Shown here: piece by piece, positions 10,421-64,000 of the stretch | Layout of the letters: each line of letters opens with the position of its first letter | Position numbering within the stretch: position 1 is the stretch's first letter | From: Psammoneis japonica | Lineage: Eukaryota | Assembly (NCBI GenBank): GCA_008632985.1 | Contig: QPGO01000051.1 | Location: 248,001-312,000, forward strand | Direction: 5' to 3' | DNA length: 64,000 bases | Position numbers and translations under genes: made by a program | The notes under the pieces: generated by a model | What the model was told of the DNA's origin: nothing | Database searches by the model: none | The model's input: the letters and a program-made list of their open reading frames with translations, nothing else

Positions 10421-10530
10421 GAGAAAAGGGAATAAATCTACCGGTACGCATGTGATGAGAAAAAGGGAATCTAGCTACGCATGAGAAAAAGGGAATCTAC
10501 GCATGAGAAAAAAGGGAATCTCTACTCATG
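10421..10530 (+). repeat. Imperfect tandem repeat, 4 x GAGAAAAAGGGAATCT(..)ACGCAT
   Basis: Four units read directly, sitting at the left edge of a TpA-depleted block. Confidence 0.85.
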
Positions 10531-32277: not shown

Positions 32278-32380
32278 GGTGGGGAGAAAGATACGTTTCG
32301 CCTTGGAACACCAATCGAATTTGTGAATAGAGGATGCGGATTTTGCGAAGAGCAAAAGCGTTCTAAAGATATCGATGACG

Positions 32381-32395
32381 AACGTCACTGACGTT
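32381..32395. promoter_or_regulatory. Palindromic pair of TGACGT motifs upstream of the second Lhcx
   Basis: AACGTCA-C-TGACGTT, about 105 bp upstream of the ATG. Confidence 0.45.
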
Positions 32396-32612
32396 TGCGT
32401 ATCTATTGTATCTTGCGTGTTCCATGCCTACTCGAGTGTACCGGTACCGGTTATGTATGGTACGTATGTACTGCTGCGCCGATGTCACCGCTTGAGTCAC
32501 ATGCAGATAAAAGATTCCTTTACATGCTTCGTTGTCATGAAGGAAGAACGTTGATCGTAGAATCTCACCTTTGTTCGTTGTTCTCAGCTATCGGGCAGGC
32601 CACCATACAGTA

Positions 32613-43329: not shown

Positions 43330-44245
43330 AGCGAGGTGTGCAAGGTTTTGTGTCCTTTTGAAAAAGACCTTTCTCGCAGGCATGCTTGTTGGTTTGTCTG
43401 GATCAATGCTTGAGCTCCACAACTGGGGTCCTGCTCCTAAATCAAAATGCACAGCTACACTGATGTGCAACCGATGTGCCTTTGATGGTGTGATGTGTGA
43501 TGTGCCATGGCAGTTGCGGAATCAAAACAGTTGACATTGCTGTCATTCAGAGTTGTTGATCTCTCCCGACACACAGGGTGTGCACAGGCTTCACTCGTCA
43601 TCAAAGCCGCTGTCATTCTTTTTTGCACACACACAACAATGGGCACCAACGGCAGCTTGCTTTCAGAGCTGGCACACATTTTCTTGGCATCAGCAGTGCT
43701 GAAAATGCAGAGTCCAGTTACAAGCTCCTTTTGAGACTGTGCTGACATGGCTGCAAAGACCCACCAGTGCTTCTTGCACGTGGCCTGCCTCCTCTGCTGC
43801 ACGAATTGAGAGGCAGCAGAGAGCACTGGGGCTGTGCCCTGGTGGAAAAGGTGCAGCAAACAAAACATCACTGCAGGAAAAAGGAAAAAAGGTTCCTGTG
43901 TGCAGATCAGACAAGCAAGAAGGGCTCGTGGAAAAAGACAAGAAAAGAGGATTTTTTCAAGCAGGAAAGAGATGGTGGTGTGGAGGCCGGGGCTGGCCGG
44001 GAACCTTGTCAGAAAAGCAAGTGTGGCTGTGCTGTGCATGAGGGCTCTCTCTGCCCAGGCCACATTGTCAGTGTCATGCCAGCAAATGAATGTGTGCTGG
44101 GTTCCCCACGACAGTGGCATGTGCGCGGACATTGCGTTGTTGGAGAACAAGAGAGACAAAGAACAAGTGTGCGCTTTGTTTTCGCGCTTCTTTCTGCACC
44201 CTTGCACCACAGCACGCGCACTGTGCCCGCATCGTTTTCTCTTCG
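43330..44245. mobile_element. Degenerate TpA-depleted block next to the YR retrotransposon
   Basis: About three TA, all toward the MFS gene side; Cys/His-rich spurious ORFs. Confidence 0.5.
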
Positions 44246-44691
44246 GGATTCGATGATGTGAGATGCCGATCCGCATCCGACAAAAGTCCTAGACTGCCAG
44301 CCCAAGAACCACTGAGAAGAACCTTGGCATTGGAATGCTTGGGAGTCTCATGGAGTGGAGCTCTCGGCAACACTCTACTCCGCACAAGGGGGGTTGGGCA
44401 AAACCCACACCCTCCGCAGGGTCTCGAGTAAAACTCGAGGGCTCGTGATCAGGAACCTCTAGGATCTGCTCATGGCGCTTCCAGTCGAGACCAGTGGGAG
44501 GTGCCTCCGGCATTTCGCAACGTCGGAACCCCACACCAGATGAATCTCAGACTTGGAATCGAAGATGATGCCCGATGCTGTTCCTGTGACTTCGTAGCTG
44601 ATGCGTCGTCTAAAGCAGATCGTCAAGGAACCTGGTCCAGACTTTGCAGGTAGACTCCCGTGGTCCAACAGTGAAGTTGAGCGCAAAATCC
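44246..44691 (-). repeat. Split direct repeat B2
   Basis: ~445-bp copy of 44963-45407. Confidence 0.95.
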
Positions 44692-44710
44692 AGGGAGTGG
44701 TGGGTGGGTG

Positions 44711-44959
44711 CAAAAAATCGCTTTTCCAATGCTTTGGAATGATCCAGTCACGTTGATCAGGGTTCCTGTCTCAACAAAGATGGAAAAGTGAGAGCAACAA
44801 AACGCTGACAGGTTTGACCGGTCTCCGTGACCAGTCATCTTGGAGACCAGTCATCTTGGGCCAGAAGTGCCCGCTTCTGGAAGAGGCACAAGTCTTGGGA
44901 CATTTTCCGATGAAAGGTCTTGCATCGCACTGTTCGTCTCCATCTAAACTTGGGTGCGA
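44711..44959 (-). repeat. Split direct repeat A2
   Basis: Copy of 53531-53763 with a 16-bp internal duplication. Confidence 0.95.
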
Positions 44960-44962
44960 GGA

Positions 44963-45407
44963 GGATTCGATGATGTGAGATGCCGATCCGCATCCGACAA
45001 AAGTCCAGACTGCCAGCCCAAGAACCACTGAGAAGAACCTTGGCATTGGAATGCTTGGGAGTCTCATGGAGCAGAGCTCTCGGCAACACTCTGCTCCGCA
45101 CAAGGGGGGTTGGGCAAAACCCATGCCCTCCGCAGGGTCTCGAGCAAAACTCGAGGGCTCACGATCAGGAACCTCTAGGATCCACTCATGGCGCTTCCAG
45201 TTGAGACCAGTGGGAGGCACCTCCGGCATTTCGCAACGTCGGAACCCCATGCTAGATGAATCTCAGACTTGGAATCGAAGATGACGCCCGACGCTGTTCC
45301 TGTGACTTCACAGCTGATGCGTCGTCTAAAGCAGATCATCAAGGAACCTGGTCCAGACTTTACAGGCAGACTCCCGTGGTCTGACAGTAAAGTTGAGCGC
45401 AAAATCC
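44963..45407 (-). repeat. Split direct repeat B1
   Basis: Copy of 44246-44691. Confidence 0.95.
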
Positions 45408-45493
45408 CCCCCGATGAGAACTCCCAGGTGGTGGCCACCTGAAAAAAGAAATCTTGAGATCCAACGAAGAAGAGGCAGGTGGTGAAGCTTGTC

Positions 45494-47024
45494 TCACATT
45501 TCCTGTGTGCATCTCAGGAAAGAGGGAAGGAGGAGAGAGATGTTGGCACAGTGTTGCCTCATCTTGTGTGAGGGCCGAGCGGCCCCAGCTCGCTCCTTCC
45601 TTTTCCATTGATTCACTGCATCGATGTCGTCTTCCGACACACTCTGGGAAACAGCTCGCGAGTCAGACCCACGATGGAACGATCGGCTCACATCGCACTT
45701 CTCTTGATGTCGCCATGAGAAGTGATGTCGGCACCAAACAGAGCCGGGTGGTCGTTGAACAGTTCACCCAGAACAAGATGGAGAAGGGTGTTCAACTCCC
45801 AAGTGGTTGCAACCTTCCCTCCAGGGTCTGATGCAGCCGGCCCTCTAGCACGTCCTTTCGAAGCTTGCAAGGACACAACAGCTCGGGTCCATCCACGGAT
45901 CTGATGCCGGAACCTGTCACATTTACGCTTGGCAGAAGGTGCTGCCGCTCACCGTGTTCTCCCCCAACTCGTCGAGCAAAGGGATCACAACACACGAGTT
46001 GTGGAGTGGGAGGTGTTCCCGCAACGCCCCCAAATGATGAGCAATCCCTCTGGCCCACAAAGGGACAGGGTGAAGCTCACTGCAAAACAGAAGCCCCCGG
46101 CCAGAAACCCAAACCGATCCCCGGCGTTTGTGGCTTGAAGAAACTTGTCTTCAAGCCTTGGCAGCAGATGTTGCACAATTTGAACAGAAATTGCCCTGTC
46201 CGGCCTCCAATCCTGGCCCATTTGTCTCTTGCATCCAGTCACAAACCTTTGAAACCACAAGGAGGCACACGGGTCCTCGCATGTCTGAAGGTGTTGCTTG
46301 CCTTCAAGATCCGCCAACGCAAGGGCCCGAGAGTTGGCGGAGGCTGATGCCCTGACCTGGTTTGAGCAAGCTGTTCGAAGCTTCCTGACGGTGTCAAACT
46401 GGGAGTGCGAGCCTGAACAGTGACCGGGGGGTGTGATGCCAAGACTGTCTGCATTGCCACCTCATGTCCACAGTGATCATGCGGAGGCAAGGGGCCTGGT
46501 TCCAGATGAGGGCCATGAAGACCAAGACGATCCAACAGGGCCAATCCCTGAGCCACCTTGGACGCGTTGTTCTCCACAGTGGAACTTTCTCTGCTCCAGA
46601 ATGCACCCAAATTGATCTGCCTGATGCAAGCCAATGCCACCTCATCACGTGGAGAAGTCGGGATAGGGTCTCTGCGATGCAACTCATGAAAAATGCAAGT
46701 GTCGCACTTGAAAGCCACCATTGGATGGTCCCCAGCACGAGCTTGGAAGAACTTGTTCCTGTCCTGGGGCTTTCGAAACCAAATGTTGTCTTCAATTTGC
46801 GCCGCATCCTCACCTGGCTGGGCCCCGTCATCGTTTTGATGGTCGTCCGGGAGAATCCCGCCCAAGTGAAGGTGACGCTTGCGCTCGAAGCATGACACCC
46901 TGGACACCACGCTCTGCGACACGGAGGCCAACCTCGGACACTGTGCACAAAATTTGCGCAAAATGTCCCTCGCGTCCACTTCAGCCTCCTCCCACACTTT
47001 TGCAACGCCCGGTCCATGGAGCAC
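45494..47024 (-). pseudogene. Tyrosine recombinase of the retrotransposon (frameshifted, catalytic residues mutated)
   Basis: AFWSRESSTV; SLCGPEG (expected SLRGxE); SRSFHRGS...VNQW...MRQHC (expected RSxRRG...W...HY). Confidence 0.8.
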
Positions 47025-47063
47025 ATCTTTGGTGTCCCTCGGAGCTGCTGCGGACTGTGAGAG

Positions 47064-50061
47064 ATGAAGGGGAAAACAAGACCGATGAGCAAAGGTTCGA
47101 ACATTTCTTCAGGCCAGAACGCCCCAGCTCCCGCCGGCACCAGAAAGACGAGGTCCGCTGCCTCACACAATTGTTTCTGCCACTCCGGAGTCATTGGGTG
47201 CGGACAGACAAAAATGTGGAACGATTTCTGGCGCTTGAGGTGGGCAATGCAGAGTTCTTCGAGAGCCGTTCTAGCCGCGGCGGGCGGTGGGGCCCAGACC
47301 CAAGTGCCTGACCGGAACACTGGCATCTCAACCGCTTCGCAGGGCGGGCAGTGCCACTCAGATGTGTCGCGGCCCTTCTGGAACCAATCGACAGGAGAAA
47401 GGAGTTCGGCCGTCAGTGATCCCACCCAGGAATGGATCCAATCGAACAGCAGAGGTGCCCGCTCAGTCGCTGCCAAGTGCAAAGGAACAAACGAGAGCAT
47501 CTTGGCCCCATTCAAGACCCCTTCCACAAGATGCCTCGAAAACCCCATCTGTGCCTTGGGCTGTCATGCGTTTGCCCGAGACATGAACCAAGTGGAGAAT
47601 GAACCCGCACTTGGCCTCGAGCACCCGCAACCGTGTCACCTGCTCCAGGAGTTTCAGATTCGACGAGGTTTTTGTAGACTGCAATCTCTGAGACTGAGTT
47701 GTCAGTGAAAAAGCAGAGAGTGGTGCCATCCATTTCCCCCCGACTCAGCCAGCTCCTGGACTGCATCGATTGTGCTCGAAAGTTCCTTCCAATTTGAAGA
47801 ATTGGATTGATCATCGTCGCCCCAGATCCCAATCCGAAACACGATCGCCCCGTCCTTAGTCTGGACGGATGAACCAAGGCCCTTCCCAGACGCATCAGCG
47901 AATCCGCACAGGACCACCACAACCTTGGAGGAGCAGACAATTCCAGCAGCAGGCTCATCCGGTTCCACAATCCGTCGCAAAGCCCGCAAGTCAGAGAACA
48001 ACTGAGGCACTGCACGCACGGTCTCGGGGTGCTTGCCGTCCCGAAGGTTCTCACCAAGCTCACACGGATCAGCACTGAGCTTGTCGGCCTTGTGATGGAT
48101 CCATGCTGTGCACTCCTCATCTGACACAGCCCACCCATCCGCCTTTCGGTTTGGGCGCCAACTGTCCAGTGTCAGGTGAATCCCTTTGAGGAAGGGCATC
48201 AAAAAGGGGCAAGTCATGGCGGCATGGACAAGAAACCCACGCTTTCGTTCGAGGTCCTTAAAGTTGCACTCGGGAGGCCGAGTCATCCATTCCATCGCAT
48301 GACTTAGAAGGGACTCAATCATGCCCTTGCCCTTGTCCCACTTGGCCTGTGAAAGAGATTGGGTGACATTGCGGGCAAGCACGCGGAAAATGGCACCAGC
48401 CCAGGCACCCATCTCCTGCTGGGATGGGGGCTGAACTTTGCGCGGGGCGTTCTGGAGTCCAAGACACTGAAGCCTGGCAGCCATCTGATGTGCCACTTGC
48501 CACGCCTCTTCTTCACTGGCTCCCATGCCTGCAAGTCATCTGCGAAGGTTTTGATGTCTCCAGCGATGATCTTCAGGATGGAGTTCCATTTGATCATGAG
48601 TGGGTCTTGAACCTTGCAACTGGGATCCCCTGGGAGGTTAAAAAGAACTTTGTCAAAGCCCGCGGGGTTCCCCGGACGGCTGGGATCCCCTCGGGCCACT
48701 TCGTCAGCCCAATGATGCGTCTGCACCGCGTTGCAAGGGCTGGGCTTCATTCCCATAAACAGACGGTTCCAACGCTCCATGCCAACAGGAGATTCAGTCG
48801 GCAAGGGCCGTGGGAGGTGGTTGCGGAGCGGAGTGAGATCAACACCGGCAAAGGGTCGAATCCGTGGGTCCATGAAAAAATTGAGAAACATGTCCCCCAG
48901 ATCCAAATCAACAGAGAAAGTTGATTCGGTCATGCACCCTAACACCGACGCTGCAGTTGGAAGGAAGAAAGAAGGAGCCCAGAGAGCGTCGTTTAGACCG
49001 GATGAAGTGCCGTTGTGCACCATCCGGATGTCCTCGACTGCTTCCTCCATCCTCCCGTCAGACCTCGGGACCAAAGACACAGCCTCAGGGACCCAGAAAC
49101 AGTCTGCAAGACTCGAAACTGGAGCACGCTCAATGCATCCATGGTCCCGGACCTTCTGGATTTTGGTTGCCATGCGCTGCACTTCGTTTGCAGAGCCGCA
49201 AACCCGTTGCCACTTGCGGTTCCTGGGTGGCGTGCCTCTTGCGAAAATCGGAAGACCATCGCGTGCTCCCTGGCGTTGCTCAGGCGAGGGCCTGCGCCAG
49301 AAGAAAAGAGAAGAGCCCCGGCCCCAGCTCCACCAGGAACTTGGCAAAGTTTGAGTTAGAACGTCAGTGCCAAGATTCCCGTCCAACAGTGACGCTGGGA
49401 GTGGTGGGTCTCGATGCAAGCCCCCCTGATGACTCAACAGAGAGTCCCCAAACCATTGTCGCAAGCGCAGCAGCTGAGGAACCCATTCCCACCCGTGGCA
49501 TCGACTCATGTGCCCCAAGAACGAGCGAGTCAAACGGCGGTGCCACCACCAAAGAGCCATCACACGCAAAGCTGGAAGGACAGGCCCAAACATGGGAAAC
49601 AAAAGCGCAATCCGCTTGTCCCATGGACGAAAAGGCGGCAATGCCGAATCCCCTTTTGCCGCCTTGGCAGTGACAAGGGACAGGTTGATCCATTCGTGAG
49701 GCAAATGCCGACCAAGCCGAGGCAGCCAAGTGGCCACAGCCGGCTCAATGGCAGGTTCCGAAGGACCCAAAGATGGGTCGAGGACCGCCGGCCGGGTGCT
49801 GGTGGAGCGCTGCTCAATGACGTGGTCAATGACCGAGGCAAGTAGATTCAGTGGGATCAACTGACTCCACACCTCCCCAGAGAGCAAATCCATCATCTCC
49901 CTTGTCCGGAATCGAAGTGGGAAATCCCACGCAGCCAGGAGTTCGTCGTCACTCAACTCCCTGAGGATCCACCCCGCATGGGACCGGTGAGACTGATGTG
50001 ACACTGGCCGGTGAGTGACTTGTGGGCTCACACGATCGCCCTCCCTGTGACACACCCCCAA
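47064..50061 (-). pseudogene. Reverse transcriptase + RNase H + MT-like region of the retrotransposon
   Basis: DIRMVHNGT, DLDLGDMFLNF, MGMKPSPC, FADD; RNase H CGFADASG...SSNWKEL...FFTDN; WVWAPPP...FVCP...W segment. Confidence 0.85.
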
Positions 50062-50417
50062 AGGTTCTGAGGGGCACGGCTGTCCCGCCAGTTTGCAGTC
50101 AATGATGTGGCCAATCGTGCAACACAGGCCCCCCCTGAACTCTGGGAGAGAGCCCCCGACACAGAAAAGGGTCGTTCAAAAGGACGTGACGCCGCCAACC
50201 ACTGAATGGGGTGGGCCAACGTGACACAAGTGCTGAAGCCCTTTCAAGCCACGTCTTGACATCTTGCCGACCGGGGCCAAGTGCATCGGAACATTGCACT
50301 CCAATCGAGAGATCCTCTCCAAGCATGCCGGGTCCCCAGACACCAGTGCCACATCGCCAGCAGGCGCCAAATTGCCAATCCCTGAGAATGGCATGCGTTG
50401 AAGAGATGCACCCTTCT

Positions 50418-50813
50418 GGCGTGTTCCAGCTCTAGGTGGGACCTCGCACTGCTGAACTGTGACATGATTGTTTTTTGTCATCCGTCGCATGTTTCGCACG
50501 TGCATTTCTACGTGTTCTATCATAAAAAATTGTTCCACACTGCCTGTTTTGCGAAGCCAAAGGCTTTCTGTTGTCTGCACTCATGTCAACAAAAATGTGC
50601 TGGGTGTGTTCTTTAATGTCTAAAGAACATGCCCGGGCATGCTGTAAAGAATGTGCTTCAAGTGTGGAGGAGGAGATGCGTTCGCAAAATTGCCTCTTTT
50701 TCTGTTGGCGATCATTCATGCATGCATTGCTCAACAATTTTACTGCGGAGCTCGCACGTAGAATTCTGCGGGCCCAATGTCACAAAAAGTCCCACCCAGG
50801 ACTGGAACCCGTC
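50418..50813. mobile_element. MITE copy 2 nested in the retrotransposon
   Basis: ggcgtgttccagctctaggtgggac ... gtcccacccaggactggaacccgtc; flanks ttct/tcct; homologous to 28427-28816. Confidence 0.88.
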
Positions 50814-51037
50814 TCCTGACCCTCGCAGAGGTGGATGACAGCACACTCCAACAGGGTGGGAGGATCGTTCACACAACACAATGCGACACGAGGCCACTCA
50901 GATGGCCTTGACGCCAGGAGCCAAATGGGGGGGGCGGTGGAAATGATCAAGCAAGACCCATGGAACAAAAACAATTTGCGACCGCGGATGACAAGCCCCA
51001 CATTTTCGAACACAGGTGAGTCCACCCCCTCCGAGTT

Positions 51038-53215
51038 TCATTTCTTGGATTCTATCGCTTTCAGACACCCATTGACCTCTTTGAGTTCCGTTTTCAGTTT
51101 GTTCACCTCCTGGTGCGCCGTGTCAGCTCTGGCCTGTGCCGACTTGGCTTCGGTTCCAGCATTTTTTGCCTTTTCCGTCAGCATTGTCACTGCAGCTTGC
51201 AATGCAGTGACAGCTTCAAAGCCGGAGTTCGTAGCCAGAAATTTCACATGCTCCGATGCCATGGAGGGGTGGTCCCTGAAGTTGTGAGCTGTGTGCTCGG
51301 CCACAATGTCGTGAGACCGAAAAATTGCCCAAAGAATCTGGCTGCACACAGCATCCAGATCTGTCCCCTCGACAGACGTGAAGATGCCGGAGCGAACCTG
51401 ATTGAGATCATCGAAGATTCTGTGCACCAATTTCGAAGTCAAGGACCACGCCTGCTTTTGAGAGAACTTGCTCAGTTGCACCAGGTTCTTGCAAGTTTCA
51501 TCCACAAACTGAATCAAACCCCGAATAAATGCTGCTGACTTCGACAGGGCATCTCGAACCACCTGGCCTTCAAACGACCCCCCCGGGATTCGCTGAGCGA
51601 TGTCGTTCAAAATGTTTCGCTCGATCGTCCCAATTTTATCCATGATAAAATGCTTGGTCCCTGTTGAGCCAGTGGACCAGTGATCATGGGAGGCCATCTT
51701 GTCCAAGAACGACGGGTGAAGGCCCGCCGACTGCGCTCCTTTTGCCGAGCCCGAATCCAAAATTCTCGGCATGCCATGCTGAAAACTCGCCAGAGTCCTT
51801 GCATCCTCCTCCGTGCTGATCTTTGGGTCCATGCGCTTAGCCAGACCAGCCAAAAAATGGTGCAAAGCCGCTGGTTCCGTGCCCGCGATTCGATCCAACA
51901 ACAAATTTGCATCTGTAAGGCAGCCATGCACCCTGGAGGAAAAATGTTGTGCCACCCATGCTTGACATTCTCCAAAAGACGAGACACCGACCCCAGAGAA
52001 CTTGACAGCCGAAGTGTCTGACTTGGACTTCAACTCGTTCACCGCTTGGCTCAGATCCCGCATCTGTCGGTCCACGGAGCTCGAGCTTCCGACTCCTGTA
52101 AACCCCAATCCGCTGCCAGATCCAATCGCGCCTCCAAACGAGGCTCCCGCATTTTCAAGATTCTGAACTCTGCCAATCAACTGGTTGCAAACTTCAAGCA
52201 TGACTGTCCTCAGAGAGTCCATGTCACGCTCAGCTGCCAACCCAGAAATTTTGTTTTGCAAGTTCTGGATGGCGGCACTCACATTTGATGCCAGTCCATT
52301 GGAGCCGGCACGAACATTCGACTCCTGTGCCAAATCTACGGACAAGTCTCTGGGAGGGCACTCGGGTGAGCCGACTGTTGACAGACCAGCAAGTGTTCCC
52401 CAAATCGCAGGGGCTTCCACTTGCTGATCGAATTCCGGTGGAGGAGAACCGAGGGTTGCATCCAGCTGCTCCAACTTGCGGCTGAGGACGCTGACTGAGG
52501 AGTTCGATTCCTTGAAGTGCGCACATGCCTTGTTGCCCATCTCCACCACCGTGTTGCCGGTCTCCGTCAAGTTTCTTTCCAGGGACTGAACAACTCTAGC
52601 CAGGGCCGCAGGACTTTTGTTCGCGGCCAGAAATTGCGCCAGGGTGGTGGAAATCACCCGCTGGTGGGGTGTGAAGTGTCCGAAAAGTGCCCCAGGAAAT
52701 TCCTCGCTGCGGGGATCTTTGCCCTTCACCAGCGTCTTGTAAGCCGCAGCGACTTTGTGCTCCTTCAAAGACGCCCCACATTCTTCCTCCGTAGGACAGC
52801 GAGTGTCGCTGTTCCCGAGAGCCAGAAACTTCTGATGCCACCCTGCCAAAGTGTCGGTGTTCCCTTCCCACCTAACCAGCACCTCCGCCAAGACAAACGA
52901 GCCGTCCAAAGTGGGCTGGCAAAAAGCCGTGTCTGGTGTCTTGAGAATCGACACCATGCCGTCCGAAGGAATGACCTTCTTCGAGCCCTTGTGTTTCACC
53001 TTGCAATCCCCAGCTTTCTTGAAACAGAACGTGGCTCCACCCCCGACAACCCCAAGGCAACGGGAGTTGTCGGCACCTTCGATCCAGGTGACATGAAAAC
53101 GAGGTGCATCAGACGAAGGAGACGTGCCTTCCTCCATCGAGCCAGATGCACCTCGAGCCGCTCCCTCATCCTCCACTGCGAAAAAATCAACGCGGGGAGC
53201 GCCGTGATTTGACAT
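51038..53215 (-). CDS. ORF1 (gag-like, coiled-coil) of the YR retrotransposon
   Basis: Long open frame directly after A1; C-terminal coiled coil; only one Tyr in the 732-aa track ORF. Confidence 0.7.
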   Translation of the reverse strand: MSNHGAPRVDFFAVEDEGAARGASGSMEEGTSPSSDAPRFHVTWIEGADNSRCLGVVGGGATFCFKKAGDCKVKHKGSKKVIPSDGMVSILKTPDTAFCQPTLDGSFVLAEVLVRWEGNTDTLAGWHQKFLALGNSDTRCPTEEECGASLKEHKVAAAYKTLVKGKDPRSEEFPGALFGHFTPHQRVISTTLAQFLAANKSPAALARVVQSLERNLTETGNTVVEMGNKACAHFKESNSSVSVLSRKLEQLDATLGSPPPEFDQQVEAPAIWGTLAGLSTVGSPECPPRDLSVDLAQESNVRAGSNGLASNVSAAIQNLQNKISGLAAERDMDSLRTVMLEVCNQLIGRVQNLENAGASFGGAIGSGSGLGFTGVGSSSSVDRQMRDLSQAVNELKSKSDTSAVKFSGVGVSSFGECQAWVAQHFSSRVHGCLTDANLLLDRIAGTEPAALHHFLAGLAKRMDPKISTEEDARTLASFQHGMPRILDSGSAKGAQSAGLHPSFLDKMASHDHWSTGSTGTKHFIMDKIGTIERNILNDIAQRIPGGSFEGQVVRDALSKSAAFIRGLIQFVDETCKNLVQLSKFSQKQAWSLTSKLVHRIFDDLNQVRSGIFTSVEGTDLDAVCSQILWAIFRSHDIVAEHTAHNFRDHPSMASEHVKFLATNSGFEAVTALQAAVTMLTEKAKNAGTEAKSAQARADTAHQEVNKLKTELKEVNGCLKAIESKK

Positions 53216-53530
53216 GCTTTCTGCCCTCGAGAGCAAGGCATCGAATGCAGAATCTGGGTCAGGGGAAATGACTTCCCCAATTCCGCACGCTCAATGTCCG
53301 AATGTCCCATGTCGCCAGTCATTTCTTCAAGATTTGAGCCCCCAAGAGAGGGGCTCAAGCCTTCAACACCCCCCTGATGACCCACCGCAGAGGGTGGGGC
53401 CCGAGAAGCAGGCGACGCGGGAGACTGCACCAAAAAAGGAGAAATGACATTGGACTCTCACGTTGACGAAGGCACCATCATCGATGCCAGAGGAGAAGCA
53501 GTCGGACATGGTCGGGAGAGGGAGAGGGAG

Positions 53531-53763
53531 CAAAAAATCGCTTTTCCAATGCTTTGGAATGATCCAGTCAAGTTGATCAGGGTTCCTGTCTCAACAAAGA
53601 TGGAAAAGTGAGAGCAATAAAACGCCGATAGGTTTGACCGGTCTCCGTGACCAGTCATCTTGGGCCAGAAGTACCCGCTTCTGGAAGAGGCATAAGTCTT
53701 AGGACATTTTCCGATGAGAGGTCTTGCATCGCACGGTTCGTCTCCATCTAAACTTGGGTACGA
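53531..53763 (-). repeat. Split direct repeat A1 (5' end of the element; retains its TA dinucleotides)
   Basis: Copy of 44711-44959. Confidence 0.95.
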
Positions 53764-53995: not shown

Positions 53996-55630
53996 ATGAG
54001 AAATGGGGATCGGTTGAATGCAAGTGATGCTAAGCGACCACTGACACGGCGACACTCTGTTGGCATCGTCTGGTCAGGGTTCGCCCTTGCTTTCCTTGTA
54101 GCCGATACCTTTCTTTCTTCCATGTCGATGCAAGAGCTCAAATCGGTCCTAACCTACCAGGAATCCCATTCGGCACTTGTTGAACAAACGGTAGAGTTGC
54201 AAGCAAACGATCCATTTCCTCGGTGGGGTGATTCCAGAGGAATTGACATTGAAGCGATTGTAGCATTCTTCAAAACGTGGAGGTCAAAGACCAACAAGAA
54301 TCTGGATTTTCTGGATCCTCATGACACGTATCCTATTGGAAACACCGTCGTATTGTTTGGCCCACCCACAGACCCCAATGAAAGCAATTCTAGTAGTGAA
54401 GAAACAGATCCAAAGGCTTGGGTAGAAATCTCCGCAAAAATTACTCGACAACTCATCCCAAACAGACTAGTTCCAGGAGAAAAACTGCTTGTTGATGCAC
54501 TGGAGATGCTCCGTAAGTCCGTTTCTCTCAAATGGAGTAGACTCAAGCAGGTTGCACTGAGGTCTGGGCTGCCAATCATTATCAACTATGCAGACTATCG
54601 AGGATGCAGCAAGGAAAATCTCCTTTTCAATGGAACTACCTACAGTGTTCCAATCTTTTCCCTTTGTTCTGCATTCAAGGCAGAATCGTGCAATTACACA
54701 TTTCCATTACCGTCATATTTCGCTATTGAGCATGCAATGGGCAGTCCCGACGAGTGGGATAATGTTTTTAGACAACAAGATTTAAAGTACCATTGGGAAA
54801 ACAAGACGAAACTAGCGGTATGGAGAGGAACGAATACGGGGTTTCCCAGTCAGAAGGACTGTCTTCGCTATAGAATGGTCCAAGAAGCATCCAAATACCA
54901 AGACCAACTTTTTGACGTTGCATACGCCGTAAGATGGGCAGGAGCGAACGTTCGTCGTTCCCGGATTCCCTTTGAGGACTTTCAAAACTACAGAGCAATA
55001 CTTGACGTGGACGGGAACTCGTGGTCAGGTCGATTTGTCAAGCTTCTGTCAATGAATTCTGTCGTACTAAAGGTGGAGCCGGAGTTTACTGATTTCTTTA
55101 TGCCACAGCTTCAACCTTGGGTTCACTACGTACCAGTACGGGCCGACTTGTCTGATCTTGCTAATATTACAAAGTTCGTCCTGGCAGATGAGAATGCACC
55201 AAAAATGAGGGAAATTGTTCAGAACGCACGCGATTGGTCCAGAGATTTTTCTGTCTACAACAATGTGGTGGAATCGATCCTCTCCATCTTGTCTTTTTAC
55301 GTGGAACTGCTTGACAGGAATAATCCTCATTGGGAAGACGTGTGGCGAAGAAACCTGCCACATCTAGTGAAGCCGGGGTTGAATTGGGTTGCGATTCGTT
55401 CGACCAAGGGACGAGAGATCATTAATTGTGGATGCCCTCAAACTTGTAACAAGGACGCACGAAGCAAAAAGAGGAACAATCTTCCCTTTACTTGCCAGCA
55501 ACGTGTCCACTACATGATGTCCACACATGGAATGTCTCAAAATGCATCGTGTATCCATGCAAGCAATCCAGATTCTGGTGCGTGTGGGCCCGAGTGCGAC
55601 CCTAACCTCTGCACAGCAACACAAACTTGA
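53996..55630 (+). CDS. Glycosyltransferase family 90 (CAP10/POGLUT-like) with C-terminal Cys-rich domain
   Basis: N-terminal TM segment; AVWRGTNTG, YRAILDVDGNSWSGRF, LQPWVHYVPV..DLSDL. Confidence 0.9.
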   Translation: MRNGDRLNASDAKRPLTRRHSVGIVWSGFALAFLVADTFLSSMSMQELKSVLTYQESHSALVEQTVELQANDPFPRWGDSRGIDIEAIVAFFKTWRSKTNKNLDFLDPHDTYPIGNTVVLFGPPTDPNESNSSSEETDPKAWVEISAKITRQLIPNRLVPGEKLLVDALEMLRKSVSLKWSRLKQVALRSGLPIIINYADYRGCSKENLLFNGTTYSVPIFSLCSAFKAESCNYTFPLPSYFAIEHAMGSPDEWDNVFRQQDLKYHWENKTKLAVWRGTNTGFPSQKDCLRYRMVQEASKYQDQLFDVAYAVRWAGANVRRSRIPFEDFQNYRAILDVDGNSWSGRFVKLLSMNSVVLKVEPEFTDFFMPQLQPWVHYVPVRADLSDLANITKFVLADENAPKMREIVQNARDWSRDFSVYNNVVESILSILSFYVELLDRNNPHWEDVWRRNLPHLVKPGLNWVAIRSTKGREIINCGCPQTCNKDARSKKRNNLPFTCQQRVHYMMSTHGMSQNASCIHASNPDSGACGPECDPNLCTATQT

Positions 55631-55795: not shown

Positions 55796-56928
55796 CTACT
55801 CAATGCTAGCATCGTAGTAGAAAAGAGGAAGATAAACCCATTGACCAATGCTGTTGGCTTCACAGATCATTGCCCCGTCGAGTTCATGGTCGCCCACCTG
55901 TGCTGGCATAGATGCAGCCGTTGCTGTTCTCCTCTGGCTGCTCAAGTTCTGAGCGCGTCGAAACCGAGCGAGTTCTGCCTGACATCGAGAGGCGTCCTTG
56001 GCCACCTGAACGAGAACTTCGCCAAGGACAGAGGGGTGCTGGAGCTTGATAGTGGCAACATCATCCACATTGACATTGTTCCAGTTTTCAACAAGCACTT
56101 GAATGCAGCGCTTCTGGAGGGAAGTCTGACTGGTGTGGCTTGGTTCAACGATTTTGCGTTCAGCATCCAACAGGCGAATGGCTGCATCTTGATGAACTTG
56201 TGGCAAGACACCTTGGGCTGTCAGGCCATTGAAACTGGCAGCGTCCATTTCAACGTTTTGAAACAATTCTGAAAGAAGACAACTCATGTGACGGCTCGAT
56301 TCTCTCCCCTGGGGCATTCCTCTCAGCAACAAAAGCCAAAAGTCCGGATCATTGACATGCACAATCCGAGAGGAGGTGTCAATGTCTAGAATGTTTTCCT
56401 TGAACATTCCGAGAGCAGCGTTCAATGCCTTTTCTTCATTCAAAGCCTTTGCATGTTCAATGCATGCACCGCATGTGTTGCTGCTGATGTCTTGAGTCCA
56501 GAACTTCTTGGTCTTCCAACGCAAATGTTGAATGCCAAAATGCTGAGAGAGGTGGCAAAGCGATGTGGCATTCTGAGTGTCAATGTCAAGAGCATCATCA
56601 GCAGCATGGATGTGATCCAACAAAGCAGGAAAGGCTTTCGCAGCAAGCTCTGGTGGCTCAATCTTGCTCGTCTGAGTTTGCTGTTCAGCAAACTCATTTT
56701 GAAAGAGCGAGCAGTGACAATCGCTCTTTCTTGCTCCCACGACAAGCACAATCTCATGCACATGGCAGTCCTTGCTTTTCAGTTCGTCGGACGAACAGTC
56801 CTTGCAGCTTGTCTGCACGCACCAGTCACTCAGACTCTGTTCCGGGTCAATCCTCCAGCTCAGTTCGGGGTGTTCTGGTTCTTGGTCAGAATCGAAAGCA
56901 TCCTGAACCGCGTCCGGGTCATTCGCAT
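55796..56928 (-). pseudogene. Diatom-type BTB/POZ-domain gene eroded by TpA mutation
   Basis: LSWRIDPEQSLSDW...CHVHEIVLVVG...AFPALLDHIH...LCHLSQHFGI; Tyr occurs only in the last 14 codons. Confidence 0.75.
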
Positions 56929-57006
56929 GCTGTTGTTTGCTGCGGCAACTGTCCCTTGAAGATCAACGAGACATTGCCACCAAAATGATCCACTCCAATC
57001 CGACCA

Positions 57007-60000
57007 TGGAAATGAGCTAGATGACAGCATGAGCTGGGGCAACAACCATCTAAAGCAGATGTGTGTCAACAGCGACCACTGTCAAAGAGATTCTGATCCT
57101 CGTGAAAGTCAAAATCCGCAAGAAGTGAGAGAGAGCTTCAAACCAAAAGTCTGAAGAGAGCAAAGAAGATGCCGGTTTGGCACTGGATTCCACGAGAAAG
57201 GAAGTGGATCGGACAACCCAGGAACCAAAAGGCCATCAATGGACCAAACCACTCAATGAGAAAAACCCAACAGTCCTCAATCAGACAAAGAAGCCAAACG
57301 CTCATGAAAGTCAAGACAGTGAAGTCCCATGCGAGACCTGCCAACTCCCGTGTGTGACCAACCCACGTCATAGATCAGAAACCGCAACTCTCGTTGCTTG
57401 CTCTCCCTCTCGAGAAGACGTCGACTGCAAGACGTCAGATCGCCATTGAAAAAAATTCAAACGAAGTTCGCACCAAAACACAACCCATCATGCAATGATG
57501 CGACACCACATGCAGAGATGTGACAACCCCAGTCATCACACCTGATTGCCATCACCCTTTTCATGTGCAACACATGCATTCAAACTTGAATCAACATGTG
57601 CACAAAGTGAGTCCACCAGCTGCCTGCCACCTCATCAACTTCTTCCGCAAATGCCAAACTTTTCCTGAACCAAACCCTTTGCAAAGATGTCTGCCAACTG
57701 TTCCTCACAAGCAATCTTTTGAATGTAAATCAAAGAGTCAGGCCTTGCAATGCGAGACACCTGAAGAAATGACACTTGACCGCGACATGCTTGGCACGAG
57801 AAGTCATCTTCGGCATCGTGGCCAGCGTCAAAGCACTGTTGTTGTCCTCAAAAATGGCAGAATGGAGCAACATTTCATCATCCCAATCAATGCTCATTGA
57901 AGAAGAAACTTCCTTGATGAGTCTTTTCATGGGCAGCAGGACTCTCATCACCTGAGACAAGAGGTGACATGCTCCACCTCGAGCACAGACAAAGCAATCT
58001 TGGTCTGCAGCTTGGAAGCCCATGTCAAGGGGTTGCTGCCAATGGTCAACAAGCAACCAGACCAACTCTTGACACACACACAGAATCCTGTGGGTCCTCA
58101 TGGTTCCAAAGCCCAGTGAAATCCATGTCACAACAACAATCCAACCTTGAGTCATCGAAGACGTCACAGCAAAAATGACACTGCGATCCTTTGTGCCTTG
58201 AAGATGCCTGGCAATCCACTTGGCAGCTTCCTCATGGCTCTTCTTGGGATTGTGCATGAACCCAACACAGCTGCAAACCACATTTTGAATGTTGGGCCTG
58301 GCACTGGAAGCCAGATGGAGCATCACACCAATGGCACTTGCACAGCTCCACGATTCAACTCGTTTGGATCCGTCGGCATCGGTGGCCAAAGGAGATGAGC
58401 TGGCAGGAGTCTTCTTGACATGACAATCCTCCACATTTGCAGCAGCAATGATCTTCTTGACAAGACCCTTTTGAGTGAGATGAGCAGTTCCAGCCTCATC
58501 ATCCCCATCATTGTCAACGCCAAGAAAGTCATTTGCATCGTCAGAAACATCAAGTTCATGACTGCTGGTCTTGAGCTCACTCACGATGTCATCGATTCTC
58601 ACAAGATCCTTCACAAAGAATGAACAATCATCAACATGTGCAAGGCAAACAACATCTTTGCCGATGAACAAACAAGGGTCGCTCTCACCAGAGTGCAATC
58701 CAACCTCTTCCAGACCCTTGGACAGGTGCTGGAACCATGCAGTCACTGCTTGGCGCAAGCCGCAAAGGCTCTTGTTTAGCTTCAGTGTGCAGTCTCCCTC
58801 ATGTTTCATCTCAAAGAGCTTGGGTGATTCAACACAAACACCCCTTCAAGAATGTCTGCCTGAGCAAAAGCGAGGGCATGATCCACTTGACGTGACACCA
58901 ATCCACACAGGTTCGACAGACTCATGAGCAATGAGCAACCACACTGAACCATGCTCTGCTGGACCACCGGAGCATCCGTCGGGGCATCTCTTGATTTTAA
59001 ATGCCCAAGTGCCAGTCAAAACATTGCATTTGATGGCGCCGACTCGCGCAGCACGGAGCAAATGAATTTTGTTGCGTTGGGTCATTGATTTCAGATTGCA
59101 TGGCCTTCTTGAACTCTTCTGCATGCACCCTGCCATTGCTTCATGATGTAAAGGGGGGCACCAGGATCGCGAGTCTTCTTGCTTGCAAAAGAATCCAACA
59201 GGCAGGGTGACAATGGACATGCTGAATTGACACCATCACCATCGAGATCAGCGAACATTGCACGCATCTTTGCAAATTCCACTGTTCTGCAACCAGACTT
59301 GAGCCAACAAGTTAAGTTGGAGATGAAAGAGGCCGCGCCTTTAAGAGCATGCCCATCACAACCATGGTGTTTGTCGGAACCTTCACAACCATGACAATCT
59401 GGAGGATGAATGGTTCTTCCAGAGCATGTCCAAACCGGAGTTGGGTCACTTGGAGCTTCTTGGAAATGGCCGTCATTGTTGACAATCAAAGGCATTTCTT
59501 GAGATCTTGGGATTCTTGAGTCTCCCTCTGGAGGCTCGGACACATCAGCTGGAGCCAAAGGAGACTCAATGCTCAGAGGAGCAACTTCGTCATGAATGAA
59601 ATTGGGAGAGGACAGAGAAAAAATGCCCCTGACAGATTAATTTTGACCCCTCACAGATCAGTCGTAAAATGGGAATCCACGACTAAAACAACATGCACCG
59701 CTTCGCCACTTCTGCATCCCAGAATTTAGAAAAACAGTTTTGCACGGTCAGGGTTGGGGTTTTGCATGGTCAGGGTTGGTTTTTGGGGTTTAGGTTGGGG
59801 GGCAGGGAGTGGGACTTTTGGCAAACTCCAGTTTGTGAATGAGCAAGATTCCACAAAAAAAGTCAATCTATGACAGGACCGAGCCAATCTGTGAGGAGTT
59901 GGCACCCAAGGACAGAAGACCTGGCAAAACATCTTCAGAACATGGAACACTTGACCATCTGGGAGTGGCAGAACATCCTTGGGAAGAAGACGGCACCCTT

Positions 60001-63000
60001 GGAGATCTGGGCATTCTTTCCCTCTGTTCCGTTGGTGCTGACCTGTGCTCATCGTTGCCTTCACAACTCTTCCTGTTGGCACGTTGATCACATGATTTCT
60101 CAGCAGCAAGCCAATCATCTGACAATGGAGGCAATTCTAAACCATCATCAGCATCCACATGATTTCTCAAAGCAGTGAAAAGATCCAGCCAGTTGCGTGG
60201 TGGCATCCGTTCATCATCCAAGTGAACCACCTCAAACCAATTGTCACAAACAACAACATGGAGTTGAGGCAACACAGAACCACTCTTGAGATTCTGCATT
60301 GAACCAATGTTGCTCGCATGGTCAGGCAAATGACCCACAAACTGTCCCCTGCAGCTTCAGGCTTTCCAATGAATCATTTTCTTGCCATCTTGCAATGTTG
60401 GATCCAACACGTGGGTCGGGCATCCCCAAACAGCCAAATTTGTGAGGGTTGATTTTGAAGAAACTTTCACTCCCATGAAGACTTCTTTGGGACATGATCT
60501 GTTGAAATCCATTTGTGGGGTCAAGTTCCATGAGTGGACAGAATGACTCATGGCCATGGGCCACAAATCCATCTCTGCTGCATCTGGCCATTGAACTGCT
60601 GCAGCATGAAACACCACAGATCTTGCACATGTTGCTTGCTTGGCAATGGCGTTCTGATGGTGCGCACCTTTCTCCTTGAGTTCCATGAGGAATTCTTTGC
60701 TCACAAAAATCCTGTCATCCAATTGACATGCTTGGACAGAGACACCAGCAGAAGCAGCCTCCCTCTTGAAACTGATTTTGCTCTTGACAGTCTCGAAGGC
60801 ACTGGACAAAACTTGATGATGAACTGACACCTTGCCAGATGCAGTGTCAACAAAAACAGTTCTGCCGCCACATTTGTCTGCCTCTTTGGTCTTCCCATGG
60901 GATTTGAACAGACGACCTTGAACAGAGGATGCACGCTGGCCTGCAGCAACAAGTTGTCCAGGATGAAGAATGTCAGTCTTGAGAGATTGATCCCAGCTGG
61001 GAACCTTTTCAGCCCACACAGCTCCGGTCAGACGAGGAGTCATTTGACCATGTTGACATGCAGCGCACTTGGGATTTTTGACAGCAGTGGAGCTGATGGT
61101 TCTTGCAGCATGCTGAACATTCAATGTGATCAAAGCCAAGATGACCAAGGCAAAAGTGCCACTGCAAAAGTCTCTTTTTTGCTTCTGAAACAAATTTTGG
61201 TTGAATTCATCCATCACACACACGTGTGGATGCATTTCTTCTGGTTCGCTGCTGAAAAAGGATTCCTTCCAATCGCAGCAGGGAGCCTGTCAGTTTCATG
61301 ACAAGGCACAGCAACAGTGCCACCGTCACACCAATGAAAGAAAGCGAGGTCCTTGGAGGTGTTGACATTGAGGAGCCTGCAGCCCAAGCTGCTGCCACAT
61401 TTGTCGTCCCCACAATGAGCAACACTCAACAACTTCACAGGAGAAGTCGGAATGCAAAAGCACTCTGTGCGGACATGTTGTTCACGTCCGGCATCATCAA
61501 ATGCCATCCATTCAACAACACCCACACCCTCTGACGACATCAACATGACCTCCAACATGAAGGAAGTGGCTCAGTTTGTCAAATGTTTGAAAGTTTCAAA
61601 GGTGCAAAGTCTTCCTTGTCAAAGGCAGAAGTTGCGTTGGCCCCAGAATTGAACAAGATCTTGAGTTGCTTGTCGTGAGGGGACAAAAAGGACATCGGAA
61701 GATGGCTGACTTGTTCCCTCAAATCAACATTCACAAAATGGTGCGCGAGCATGCACGATGCAACATTTGGAAGTTGGAAGGTCCGAATCATGGTTTGTGA
61801 TCTCGTGAATCGATTTGTCACAACAATGATGACAACACTTGAAATCAAAATCTGGCACTTGATCATGCAGATGCTTGATTTCTTGAAGAGTCATGTGACG
61901 TTTCTTGGAAGAGCTTGGCCACAGAGCTGGGTAAATCCCAACAAACATCAAAATGATCACCAACACATGAATCAATTGATGATGGAATGTTGAACAAAAT
62001 GTTGTCCGTTGAGCCTTCTGGAACAACTGTGGCTCAGTTGAGACTTCAGGATTGGGCAGCTCCTTCTTCTTGGGCATCTCCACATCATGTTGGACAAATC
62101 CTGGCATCCATTGGAATGCACATGGATGACATTTGCAGACTGCAAAGCAGAGCATCACAAAAGACCACATGGATGTCATGCTGCATGCCGACAAAATGCA
62201 CAAGGCTTCTGGATGCACTTCCAATGCCACTCGGATCTGAATCTTCTTTTGCATCAGTTTCCCTCTGATGATTGGTTTTAAATGGGACAGGACTCTTTGT
62301 GAATGACAAACCAACAATCCACTGGCCCATTGGTTCAACAAGTTGCACACCAAAGCACAGCCCATGAAGATCCGATTCGATGCACTCTGGGCCAAAGTGC
62401 ACTCTTGAGAGGCTTGGGCAGTGCCAGAACCTTGCACAGAAGCATCCCAAGATGTCATTGGCATTGGAAGTGCAACTCTTGGATTGGCTTTGAGCAGCAG
62501 CAGTGGCACTCTGAGTGTTTGCATCGGCAGCTCCCTCTGGAGCTGAATGATTGGCAGTTTCATGAGTGGCCCAGCACCCACATCTGCCACACCAATGCTT
62601 GGTCACACCATTGGAGACTCAAGCATGAGATTCTCCATGTCTCAGAGGAATCTCACAAGGATCCCTTTGAGTTCAAGCAGCCTGGCATGGCCAGCAATTG
62701 CAGCAATCGCCACGACCACAACCACCTCCACCCCAATCTCCATGACCACCACCACGTCCACCATGGCCTGGGTTTCCACATCCACTGCCACCACCTTGAC
62801 TGTTGTTGTTCCGGGGTTGAGGGCAGCTTGGATGGATGTGGCCTCATTGACCACAGTTGCAGCAAACACAATTGTCTGCGCAGTTTAGAGAAGTGGCAAA
62901 TCTGGACTTGCCTGCATTTGAAGAAGTTCATTCTTCACAATCATCCACCAAACTTGTGTGTGACTTGTTTGCATGCACAGTGAGATTGCCGTGCATGCAT

Positions 63001-64000
63001 CTCATCAAATCCACATCAACTTTGTTGAAAGAGAGTCACAAATTGAATCTAAAATGACTCGAGAACTGTTGATGTTGCAAGACCACTGCAAATGATCAAA
63101 GCAGCATCTTCGGGAAGCTTGTGATGGCCTTCTTGGCATCTGCACAATTCAACAACCTTTGCAGCACAGTTCTTGACATTCTCTCCTGGCTCTTCCTTGA
63201 GTTTCACAGCCTTGAGTTTGTCCACCACCATGCACAGAGCCCACTCAGTTGATGAATGCAACTTGTTGGCAGTGACAAGCTTGCAGACAACGGGCCCATG
63301 CGTGGGTCCACCAATGTGCTTCTGGGTGTCACCGTGTGGGGTGACAACCAACCAAGTTTAGAAAGAACTGTTTGGGCCAAAGCAAGTTTTGATGATCACA
63401 TTGGCCACCCATTGTGAGCGACTCTTGCAGATCCGACAAGCTGCAATCCATCACGAGATTCAACTCTTGAGGTGCCCCAGTCCTCGGGTCTCTCCTCTGG
63501 ATGCAGAGCGCGGAATCCGTGCCACTCATGAGAACACATTTGCCAACAGAGTTGGTCCAACTGATGAGAGTCACCTTGCAATCCTTGCCAGTGTCAATCT
63601 TTGACTCCAAGCCTTTGTGACAGCAAGAGACAATTGTTGTTGTGTGACAGAATGACATCGGACGTTGACATCTAGGTCCACAAGCCATGGCATGTGGACC
63701 AGTGATTCTCGGACCATCGGTCCAAGTGATGTGCCTCAAGAAGTGGAGAAGTGACCTTGAGATTGATCCCCAAACTTGGCACTTGAATCATCTGACGTGT
63801 CATTGTTGCCAAACAAACTGGCGTCATGCCGACAAGAGTGTTTCTTGATCCTCCAGAACAATCACTCATTTCGGAGAATCAGAGGTCTTGCTTCATGTCA
63901 ATTTGCAGACCAGTCAATTCAAAGCAATGACAACACTTGGGCTCACAACCACGGAAGTGAGCTAGATGACAGCATGAGCTGGGGCAACAACAACTGTCCA
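57007..64000 (-). mobile_element. Ty1/Copia (CoDi-like) LTR retrotransposon, degenerate; 5' LTR runs off the window
   Basis: Order gag, PR (61214-61558), IN (60357-61235, GAHHQN, WGCP..VLDP), RT/RH (57730-59220, SLCGLRQA, HVDD, KHVAVKCHFFR); LTR-end match 57003-57046 vs 63948-63991. Confidence 0.9.
63938..63950 (-). other. Primer-binding site, half-tRNA-iMet type (mutated)
   Basis: Minus strand GGTTGTGAGCCCA next to the LTR end; the Ty5/copia-type PBS is GGTTATG(A/G)GCCC. Confidence 0.65.

Follow-up and report, generated by a model that had tools for sequence, protein, structure and literature searches.

Why should one copy of a repeat lose nearly all its TA dinucleotides while its twin, within the same mobile element, keeps every one of them? 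This question is raised by a 64,000-nucleotide stretch of contig QPGO01000051.1 of the diatom Psammoneis japonica (the window, whose positions serve as coordinates throughout), which carries on its minus strand a degenerate 9.5-kb retrotransposon of the predicted tyrosine-recombinase type (44246-53763). Its split direct repeats are arranged in the order A1, open reading frames (ORFs), B1, A2, B2. The 5' terminal repeat A1 (53531-53763, minus strand) holds seven TA sites, none of them converted, whereas six of the seven have been converted in the internal copy A2 (44711-44959, minus strand). It is probable that a dead element was overtaken, after its insertion, by a domain set by position in which TpA is rewritten to TpG or CpA, and that A1 lies outside this domain.

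The alignment of A1 with A2 spans their full length and contains ten substitutions and a 16-bp tandem duplication at 44829-44844, present in A2 only. At six of the ten substitutions, a TA in A1 faces its transition product in A2. Three of these products are CA, with AATAA against AACAA (A1 53618, A2 44798), GATAG against GACAG (53629, 44809) and CATAA against CACAA (53693, 44889), and three are TG, with GTACC against GTGCC (53673, 44869), TTAGG against TTGGG (53701, 44897) and GTACG against GTGCG (53760, 44956). The TA dinucleotides of A1 lie at 53618, 53629, 53672, 53693, 53700, 53749 and 53759, while the sole TA of A2 is found at 44945, in the context CTAA. The remaining differences comprise two transversions (C at A2 44751 against A at A1 53571, and T at A2 44931 against G at A1 53735), a T at A2 44806 against C at A1 53626, which gives TG in A2 and CG in A1, and an A at A2 44914 against G at A1 53718. 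An earlier note on this DNA had described six conversions, three to each product, a surviving CTAA and four further substitutions, all of which the alignment reproduces, together with the duplication that the note did not mention. Its estimate of about 230 bp between the spared copy and a GT90 glycosyltransferase gene is likewise borne out, as 233 bp separate the end of A1 from the first ATG of that gene.

A chance origin of this asymmetry is unlikely. Converted sites number 0/7 in A1 and 6/7 in A2 (Fisher p = 0.0047), the direction of the differences is 6:0 (binomial p = 0.031), and the 0/7 of A1 compares with 25 conversions among the 37 visible site-copies of A2, B1 and B2 taken together (p = 0.0013). 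The two repeats were presumably near-identical when the element inserted, since four substitutions and one duplication are all that separates them once the TA-type changes are set aside. In a published account of such split-repeat elements, repeats A1 and A2 are reported to be identical (PMC4157794). Self-comparison of 30 long related metagenomic loci revealed repeated ends at 96-100% identity in five, which, as assembly effects are possible, supports identity at insertion weakly; a 23-base piece of repeat A had no exact match among metagenome contigs. The twin repeats may thus be regarded as a natural experiment, in which sequences alike at the start and 8.8 kb apart met opposite fates, and this argues for targeting based on location.

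The conversions in A2 are part of a broader pattern. The element lies in a TpA-poor island (43457-53617) which covers 790 bp to its left and all of the element except A1, A1 being placed just outside. A second island (55910-64000) contains a Ty1/copia-type reverse transcriptase (RT) and extends into a frame with a BTB domain, and a third (25455-30967, 5.5 kb) is split by an unconverted copy, at 28430-28816, of a miniature inverted-repeat transposable element (MITE). Two small TpA-poor stretches (1-1377 and 10524-11568) are low in TA only over their central 500-1000 bp. Gene regions hold 10-30 TA per 500 bp and islands 0-5. Pooled over six islands, the observed/expected ratio (o/e) of TpA is 0.07, against 0.57 elsewhere in the window. 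CpG is also reduced (0.52 against 0.97), CpA and TpG are raised (1.53 against 1.16 and 1.62 against 1.18, respectively), and the other 12 dinucleotides shift by at most 0.13. The edges are abrupt: TA is dense up to 55833, for example, and then occurs at 55909, 56050 and 56387. The mobile DNA recognised within the islands includes the retroelement, with its RT and recombinase folds, and the copia-type RT. Host genes have normal TpA.

Direction, timing and level of the changes

The six differences between A1 and A2 are all transitions, readable either way, and these six sites lack an outgroup. As C-to-T deamination is the commonest mutational bias, CA and TG could be ancestral, with A1 having gained six TAs by methylation-driven C-to-T change at CpA/TpG or by a process resembling RIP (repeat-induced point mutation). 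Tyrosine codons offer a test, because TAY is the one amino-acid class that always contains TA. Taking as conserved the columns with Tyr in at least 60% of homologues, none of nine is kept in the RT of the element (three are now His, as CAC, and three Cys, as TGY), none of ten in the copia-type RT at 57730-58845 (four Cys, three His, with YVDD turned into HVDD) and none of nine in the recombinase gene (six Cys, two His). Over the three transposon genes, 0/28 conserved tyrosines survive and 21/28 are now His (CAY) or Cys (TGY), while 404 of the 594 columns with another conserved residue retain it (Fisher p = 5e-14).

The MITE points in the same direction. One copy (28430-28816) lies in the third island, and the other (50413-50812) interrupts the pol-like gene of the element. 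Of their four terminal inverted repeat ends, three carry CTAGG, and the odd one, in the copy inside the element, has CTGGG instead. The palindrome CGTAGAATTCTACG, perfect in the unconverted copy, has become CGCAGAATTCTACG in the copy inside the element only, where it is broken to CGCAG, and at least seven terminal sites of the copy at 50413-50812 are CA or TG where the other has TA. This copy is found in the present element copy only and is partly converted, with eight TA left. The MITE measures about 390-400 bp; it is bounded by terminal inverted repeats (GTTCCAG..CTAGGTGGGAC) and carries the palindrome in its interior.

Relatives provide a third line of evidence. In 80 related metagenomic loci, TpA o/e ranges from 0.34 to 0.81, and one-kb windows with a TpA o/e below 0.25 number 1/818, compared with 46/127 in the window studied here, although these loci were retrieved by intact peptide motifs and are therefore biased against mutated copies. 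Homologous proteins contain about 2.4% Tyr. Other copies of the element in the same genome were judged from the contigs of one public DNA sequencing run, which contains 58% of the sequence words (no RNA run is listed as containing them) and is also the source of all contig depths given below. Among the 40 listed of 1238 differences, they carry TA at five places where this copy has CA or TG and adjacent CA/TG swaps at seven, and one of the 40 lies in A1.

Taken together, the tyrosine codons, the inverted repeats and palindrome of the MITE and the TA-normal relatives support TA as the ancestral state and CA/TG as derived, the direction assumed in the earlier note. The opposite direction is very improbable: it predicts a gain of TA in repeats that stand at a TpA o/e of 0.07, it conflicts with all three of these lines of evidence, and no matching loss of CpG is seen in A1 (11 CpG, against 10 in A2). 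It could also be argued that no mutational process is involved and that avoidance of TA is an adaptive or compositional trait of these transposon families, for instance as an escape from insertions that target TA or from a nuclease specific to it. Most genomes have less TpA than expected, and its o/e is 0.57 even in the genes of this window. Nevertheless, tyrosines that are invariant and putatively catalytic are gone, YVDD having become HVDD and HHY having become QHC, and frameshifts and stops are present, all of which shows decay and not adaptation; with relatives normal in TpA and twin repeats that differ, this is the least probable of the explanations weighed.

Timing and level can be read from the second repeat pair. 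B1 (44963-45407, minus strand), the internal copy, and B2 (44246-44691, minus strand), the 3' terminal one, differ by 26 substitutions, and all 26 are transitions. Their pyrimidine-purine sites comprise two with TA in both copies, seven with TA in one only and six with TG facing CA. If TG facing CA marks two different conversions of one TA, and if six further sites with the same product in both copies are hidden, independent loss fits the three classes (q = 0.74, chi-square 0.4), with each copy having lost about 74% of 21 TAs. Independent hits imply that the conversions occurred separately in each copy, after the duplication of the repeat. An origin of the TG-against-CA sites from CpG was also considered and rejected, as it fits poorly (chi-square 15.3) and 20 CpGs are intact in both copies; two CGTG/CACG sites are genuine CpG events.

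The two products are nearly equal in number, with three CA and three TG in repeat A, and eight His (T>C) and 13 Cys (A>G) in the tyrosine codons. This bears on whether the changes could instead have arisen through ADAR-like A-to-I editing of the transposon RNA, fixed by reverse transcription before or during insertion. MITEs are normally classed as DNA transposons, and the island MITE has been hit together with DNA flanking the elements (43457-44245 and 55910-57002), so that the hits at DNA level reach beyond the retroelement. The element is a retrotransposon, and the 5' U preference of A-to-I editors matches the TA context, as discussed in a preprint on TpA hypermutation in the chlorarachniophyte alga Bigelowiella natans (Mettrop et al. 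2026, bioRxiv 10.64898/2026.01.13.699255). RNA editing, however, predicts A>G on the sense strand only, whereas both products are about equally common, which excludes editing of the template RNA; together with the independence of B1 and B2 and the affected MITE and flanks, this leaves the explanation with hardly any probability. As judged from the repeats and codons, the process is shown to act on DNA, on both strands and after insertion, and what the earlier note had proposed on strand and timing is upheld by the independent conversions of B1 and B2, including the six TG-against-CA sites, and by the balance of products in repeats and genes.

The process appears to be fast. Substitutions of neither TA nor CpG type number three in A and none in B, and about 1.4 hits per TA site-copy compare with 0.0022 per site-copy for changes of neither type, a contrast of about 640-fold which is an indirect estimate from twin repeats and depends on the six hidden same-product sites assumed above. 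It also depends on context. The TAs surviving in the islands are mostly TTAA, TTAG, CTAA and CTAG, at 14-28% of their counts outside, while GTAT, ATAC, GTAC and ATAT occur 453 times outside and never within. Because survivors sit in such YTAR contexts, CTAA is the site that remains in A2. The comparison of trinucleotide gain and loss between islands and the rest is confounded by sequence content and was used for survival ranking only. Among 26 polarised events, 21 have a pyrimidine after the A on the A-to-G strand, and at the informative sites, where the strands differ, this is the case in 13 of 16 (p = 0.02). The preferred site would be TAY or, for a T-to-C reading, RTA.

CpG is affected in the same domains. 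Seven sites of repeat B are CG in one copy and TG or CA in the other, and the conserved SLRG motif of the recombinase has become SLCG. Of the 12 arginines lost from the recombinase gene, eight have been replaced by Gln, His, Cys or Trp, as would be expected if CGN codons had undergone CpG transitions. A second, slower process that turns CpG into TpG or CpA is at work, and it probably reflects cytosine methylation.

Position and homology

Duplication as such does not seem to trigger the changes. The A twins differ in their fate, an abundant MITE copy is unconverted and two light-harvesting paralogues have normal TpA; on these grounds homology can be set aside as the trigger, as the earlier note had suggested in arguing against pairing of duplicates. 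Contig depths of the MITE family sum to 65,000-124,000, roughly 1000 times the value of about 70 found for the unique flank, and the family is probably among the commonest repeats of the genome. Its copy at 28430-28816 nonetheless keeps 27 TA, within a third island otherwise free of TA.

The borders of the islands, in turn, disregard the ends of the elements. The first island runs 790 bp past B2 and stops short of A1, and the second runs about 1.1 kb past a possible long terminal repeat (LTR) edge at 57003, into the BTB frame. Between the island edges and the coding parts of intact genes there are about 160-620 bp. A1 is within about 460 bp of the GT90 start, and the TA-normal state is continuous from A1 into the unique flank. 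Targeting by position would fit all the edges examined. We infer that the boundary may have its basis in chromatin or methylation, with shelter near an active gene.

For the asymmetry alone, restoration of A1 is a live alternative, although an unlikely one: both twins could have been mutated, and A1 later repaired from an unmutated repeat A, through recombination or ectopic gene conversion, in which case the asymmetry would be uninformative on targeting. Donors do exist, since the summed depth of repeat A is 1487, compared with about 100-400 in the interior of the element. On the other hand, the TA-normal state runs seamlessly from A1 into unique sequence, the other island edges disregard element ends and so indicate a positional rule, and no conversion tract is demonstrable.

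Under the favoured explanation, a rewriting domain set by position, the element would have inserted and then joined a genomic domain in which TpA becomes TpG or CpA on either strand. The adenine of 5'-TA-3', preferably of 5'-TAY-3', would be deaminated to inosine and copied as G, a chemistry and an enzyme that we infer. A2, B1, B2 and the interior would in this way have lost some three quarters of their TA sites or more, with Tyr codons changed to codons for His and Cys and the stops TAA and TAG erased. Position would decide how far the process reaches, whereas sequence identity and copy number would not, and the domain would end between the interior of the element and A1, such that A1 keeps its seven TAs and its twin loses six.

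Several points weigh against this explanation. The unconverted MITE at 28430-28816 stands inside an island, and a purely positional model needs a recent insertion or an episodic process to accommodate it. The signature was seen in 0/80 related environmental loci, retrieved as they were by intact peptide motifs, and the process is thus not one that relatives share at large. At the six A sites, the ancestral state follows from the general direction of change and not from observation of other repeat-A copies; moreover, the completeness of A1/A2 homogenisation at each transposition is not established, and identity at insertion is presumed. The CA+TG enrichment of the element, 1.27-1.53 per kb window, is mostly below the cut-off of 1.52 derived from the B. 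natans preprint (cut-offs as computed here): most element windows pass only the TpA cut-off, and 13 of the 64 one-kb windows pass both, including one run of four. As TA is its own reverse complement, adenine deamination is indistinguishable by sequence from a thymine-directed mechanism. Finally, the precedent is a single preprint on a distant lineage.

The element and its neighbourhood

The element is identified by its layout and by structure models. According to the published account, tyrosine-recombinase retrotransposons have split direct repeats arranged A1...B1-A2-B2, their internal repeats lying downstream of the recombinase (PMC4157794). The A-B and B-A junctions are the same in the contigs of the sequencing run, which also join 50412 to 50813; other copies of the element therefore exist without the MITE, and the family is multi-copy. 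No frame of the element matches a Pfam family. The first long frame (51038-53290, minus strand; 750 codons from stop to stop) contains a single Tyr and is possibly Gag-like.

The RT comes first in the pol-like gene (46937-50992, minus strand), which the MITE interrupts close to the start and which is frameshifted near 48530. Its 618-codon frame (48319-50175) has 1962 relatives in a representative library, and a structure model of this frame (pLDDT 67.5) matches the RTs of MoMLV and HIV-1 (E ~1e-5, probability 1.00, ~190-200 aligned columns), which confirms the RT fold. Full-length homologues of about 1250 residues map to 50992-46937, the part following the RT aligning to their C-terminal halves; no Pfam family is found in that part of either the gene or the homologues, nor anywhere in ten pol homologues searched. 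The third gene (45497-46721, minus strand) is spread over three frames and contains in-frame stops; its family comprises ~420-residue proteins, and it is predicted to have a Cre-like tyrosine-recombinase fold. A homologue, modelled at pLDDT 79, matches the structure of Cre recombinase (E = 8.6e-6, target-normalised TM 0.67) and also XerH and the Tn1549 and lambda integrases. The conserved HHY, now QHC, lies near the C-terminus. Sequence searches of the PDB gave no match for the pol profile or for a 389-codon frame, and for the recombinase profile only 2vqc, at an insignificant E = 0.021. Rfam gave no match anywhere in the window. On the evidence of layout and models, the element is best described as a dead tyrosine-recombinase retrotransposon with split direct repeats.

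The recombinase family is common in marine metagenome contigs, where 155 stretches were confirmed and 80 kept. These related loci fall in two GC classes (~0.38-0.43 and ~0.46-0.54), and the metagenomic recombinases match no Pfam family. To judge from these searches, this group of tyrosine-recombinase retroelements appears to be uncatalogued.

TA-free islands also call for caution in annotation, as they give rise to spurious long ORFs and defeat profile searches. With TAA and TAG lost, TGA stops are the only ones left, and long overlapping ORFs are consequently found in all six frames (e.g. 750, 618 and 389 codons in 44246-53530); profile searches fail because of the lost tyrosines.

On the side of A1, the GT90 frame (53996-55630, plus strand) is intact and has normal TpA, being open over 544 codons with a match to the Pfam family Glyco_transf_90 (E = 1.4e-26). 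Beyond it, the second island holds a Ty1/copia-type retrotransposon (57003-64000, minus strand) with an RVT_2 match at 57730-58845, a TpA o/e of 0.01-0.14 and a CpG o/e of 0.19-0.55. Positions 57003-57046 and 63948-63991 match each other over 44 bp and are possibly where its two LTRs have their left edges, the right LTR running past the end of the window. The BTB/POZ frame (55796-56962, minus strand; 388 codons, Pfam E = 1.1e-5) lies almost wholly inside this island, and its only tyrosines are three in its last 15 codons, beyond the island edge at ~55909. It looks like a gene, either of the host or of a mobile element, that adjoins the copia-type element and was caught in the hypermutated domain.

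On the other side of the element, the 790 bp at 43457-44245, between B2 and the start of an MFS transporter gene, are TA-free and CA/TG-rich and show no similarity within the window or to the 80 related loci. They may be either an older element, no longer recognisable, or intergenic DNA overrun by hypermutation. Pfam gave no family for the flank frame at 43455-44288, for six frames of the third island or for one frame at 10524-11568.

On either side of the third island stands a light-harvesting (Chloroa_b-bind) gene (24208-24837 and 31558-32427, minus strand); the two are paralogues, carry the same signal peptide MKFAASVLALAGSAAAFAP and look like a tandem duplicate separated by insertions. The genes of the window indicate a photosynthetic, intron-poor organism, whose light-harvesting protein has its closest matches, with up to 81% identity, in sequences labelled as the diatoms Nitzschia, Proboscia, Thalassiosira and Seminavis.

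Comparison with known systems

RIP of fungi likewise makes context-specific transitions on both strands and disables repeated or mobile DNA. It turns C into T mainly at CpA, thereby creating TpA and stop codons, and it recognises duplicated sequence and mutates both copies. The process in the window, by contrast, destroys TpA, leaving repeats at an o/e of 0.07, and removes TAA and TAG stops, and duplication is not its trigger, given the 0/7 and 6/7 of the A twins and an abundant MITE copy with 27 TA. APOBEC and ADAR editing in animals resembles it in producing clustered, deaminase-type transitions in mobile elements. Their substrate is cDNA or RNA in the course of replication, and the changes that they make are strand-specific (G>A or A>G), whereas here both strands of resident DNA were changed, at one dinucleotide only.

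Among retroelements, a methyltransferase-like domain is present in PAT and DIRS and absent from Ngaro. The element resembles the Ngaro/PAT type (order DIRS), as described in the consulted part of the published account, in combining an RT with a tyrosine recombinase and split direct repeats, with no integrase found (PMC4157794). It departs from this type in that its pol and recombinase families match no Pfam model, and the present copy is dead.

To our knowledge, RIP-style mutating defences were thought to run on cytosine deamination. TadA/ADAT enzymes edit U-A-C of the anticodon loop, and the TAY preference matches this target, which is why a relative of tRNA adenosine deaminases recruited to DNA comes into consideration. 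An adenine- or TpA-directed counterpart to the RIP-style defences is otherwise reported only in the one preprint of 2026, for one alga (bioRxiv 10.64898/2026.01.13.699255). According to the preprint, two integrated viral regions in mutation-accumulation lines of B. natans mutate ~1000 times faster than the rest. Of the 231 changes, 230 belong to the classes A>G or T>C, all of these being stated to fall on TpA, and the genome contains 124 TpA-poor, CpA+TpG-rich clusters. RT and DDE domains are over-represented in coding sequences that are poor in TpA, and an ADAT2-like DNA adenine deaminase is suggested by the authors. That text does not mention diatoms, flanking context or trinucleotides, and a full-text literature search retrieved no report of the signature for diatoms or for any other organism beyond B. 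natans.

The likeness is close. In both cases, as far as the consulted preprint text describes them, TpA changes to TpG or CpA only, on both strands and in particular regions of foreign origin, with TpA-poor, CpA+TpG-rich clusters and a rate hundreds to thousands of times the background. By analogy, the process is taken to be of the same kind as the TpA hypermutation of B. natans, and hence neither new nor an odd form of RIP. Somewhat more speculatively, at a little under even chances, the window may record a genome defence of diatoms, specific to TpA and editing DNA, which is aimed at silent chromatin domains and not at repeats, spreads within them over MITEs, flanks and a neighbouring gene, and ends a few hundred bases short of active genes, killing transposons through the change of Tyr to His or Cys while TAA and TAG are erased. 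It would be the same as the defence of the chlorarachniophyte or convergent with it, and would employ the recruited tRNA adenosine deaminase relative.

The two cases also differ. The host here is a diatom, a stramenopile, and the footprint is read from sequence, with no measurement in real time. The targets are retrotransposons and neighbouring DNA instead of a giant-virus or virophage insertion, and depletion is near complete (o/e 0.01-0.1), compared with 0.45 in the giant-virus region according to the consulted text. CpG has been lost here along with TpA, and neither the loss of RTAY with survival of YTAR nor sharp edges defined by position are described in that text. To the precedent, the window thus adds a second lineage, near-complete depletion, retrotransposon targets, CpG decay, the RTAY/YTAR context and edges defined by position. 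A footprint near saturation in a second, distant and ecologically weighty lineage suggests that the process is widespread among microbial eukaryotes.

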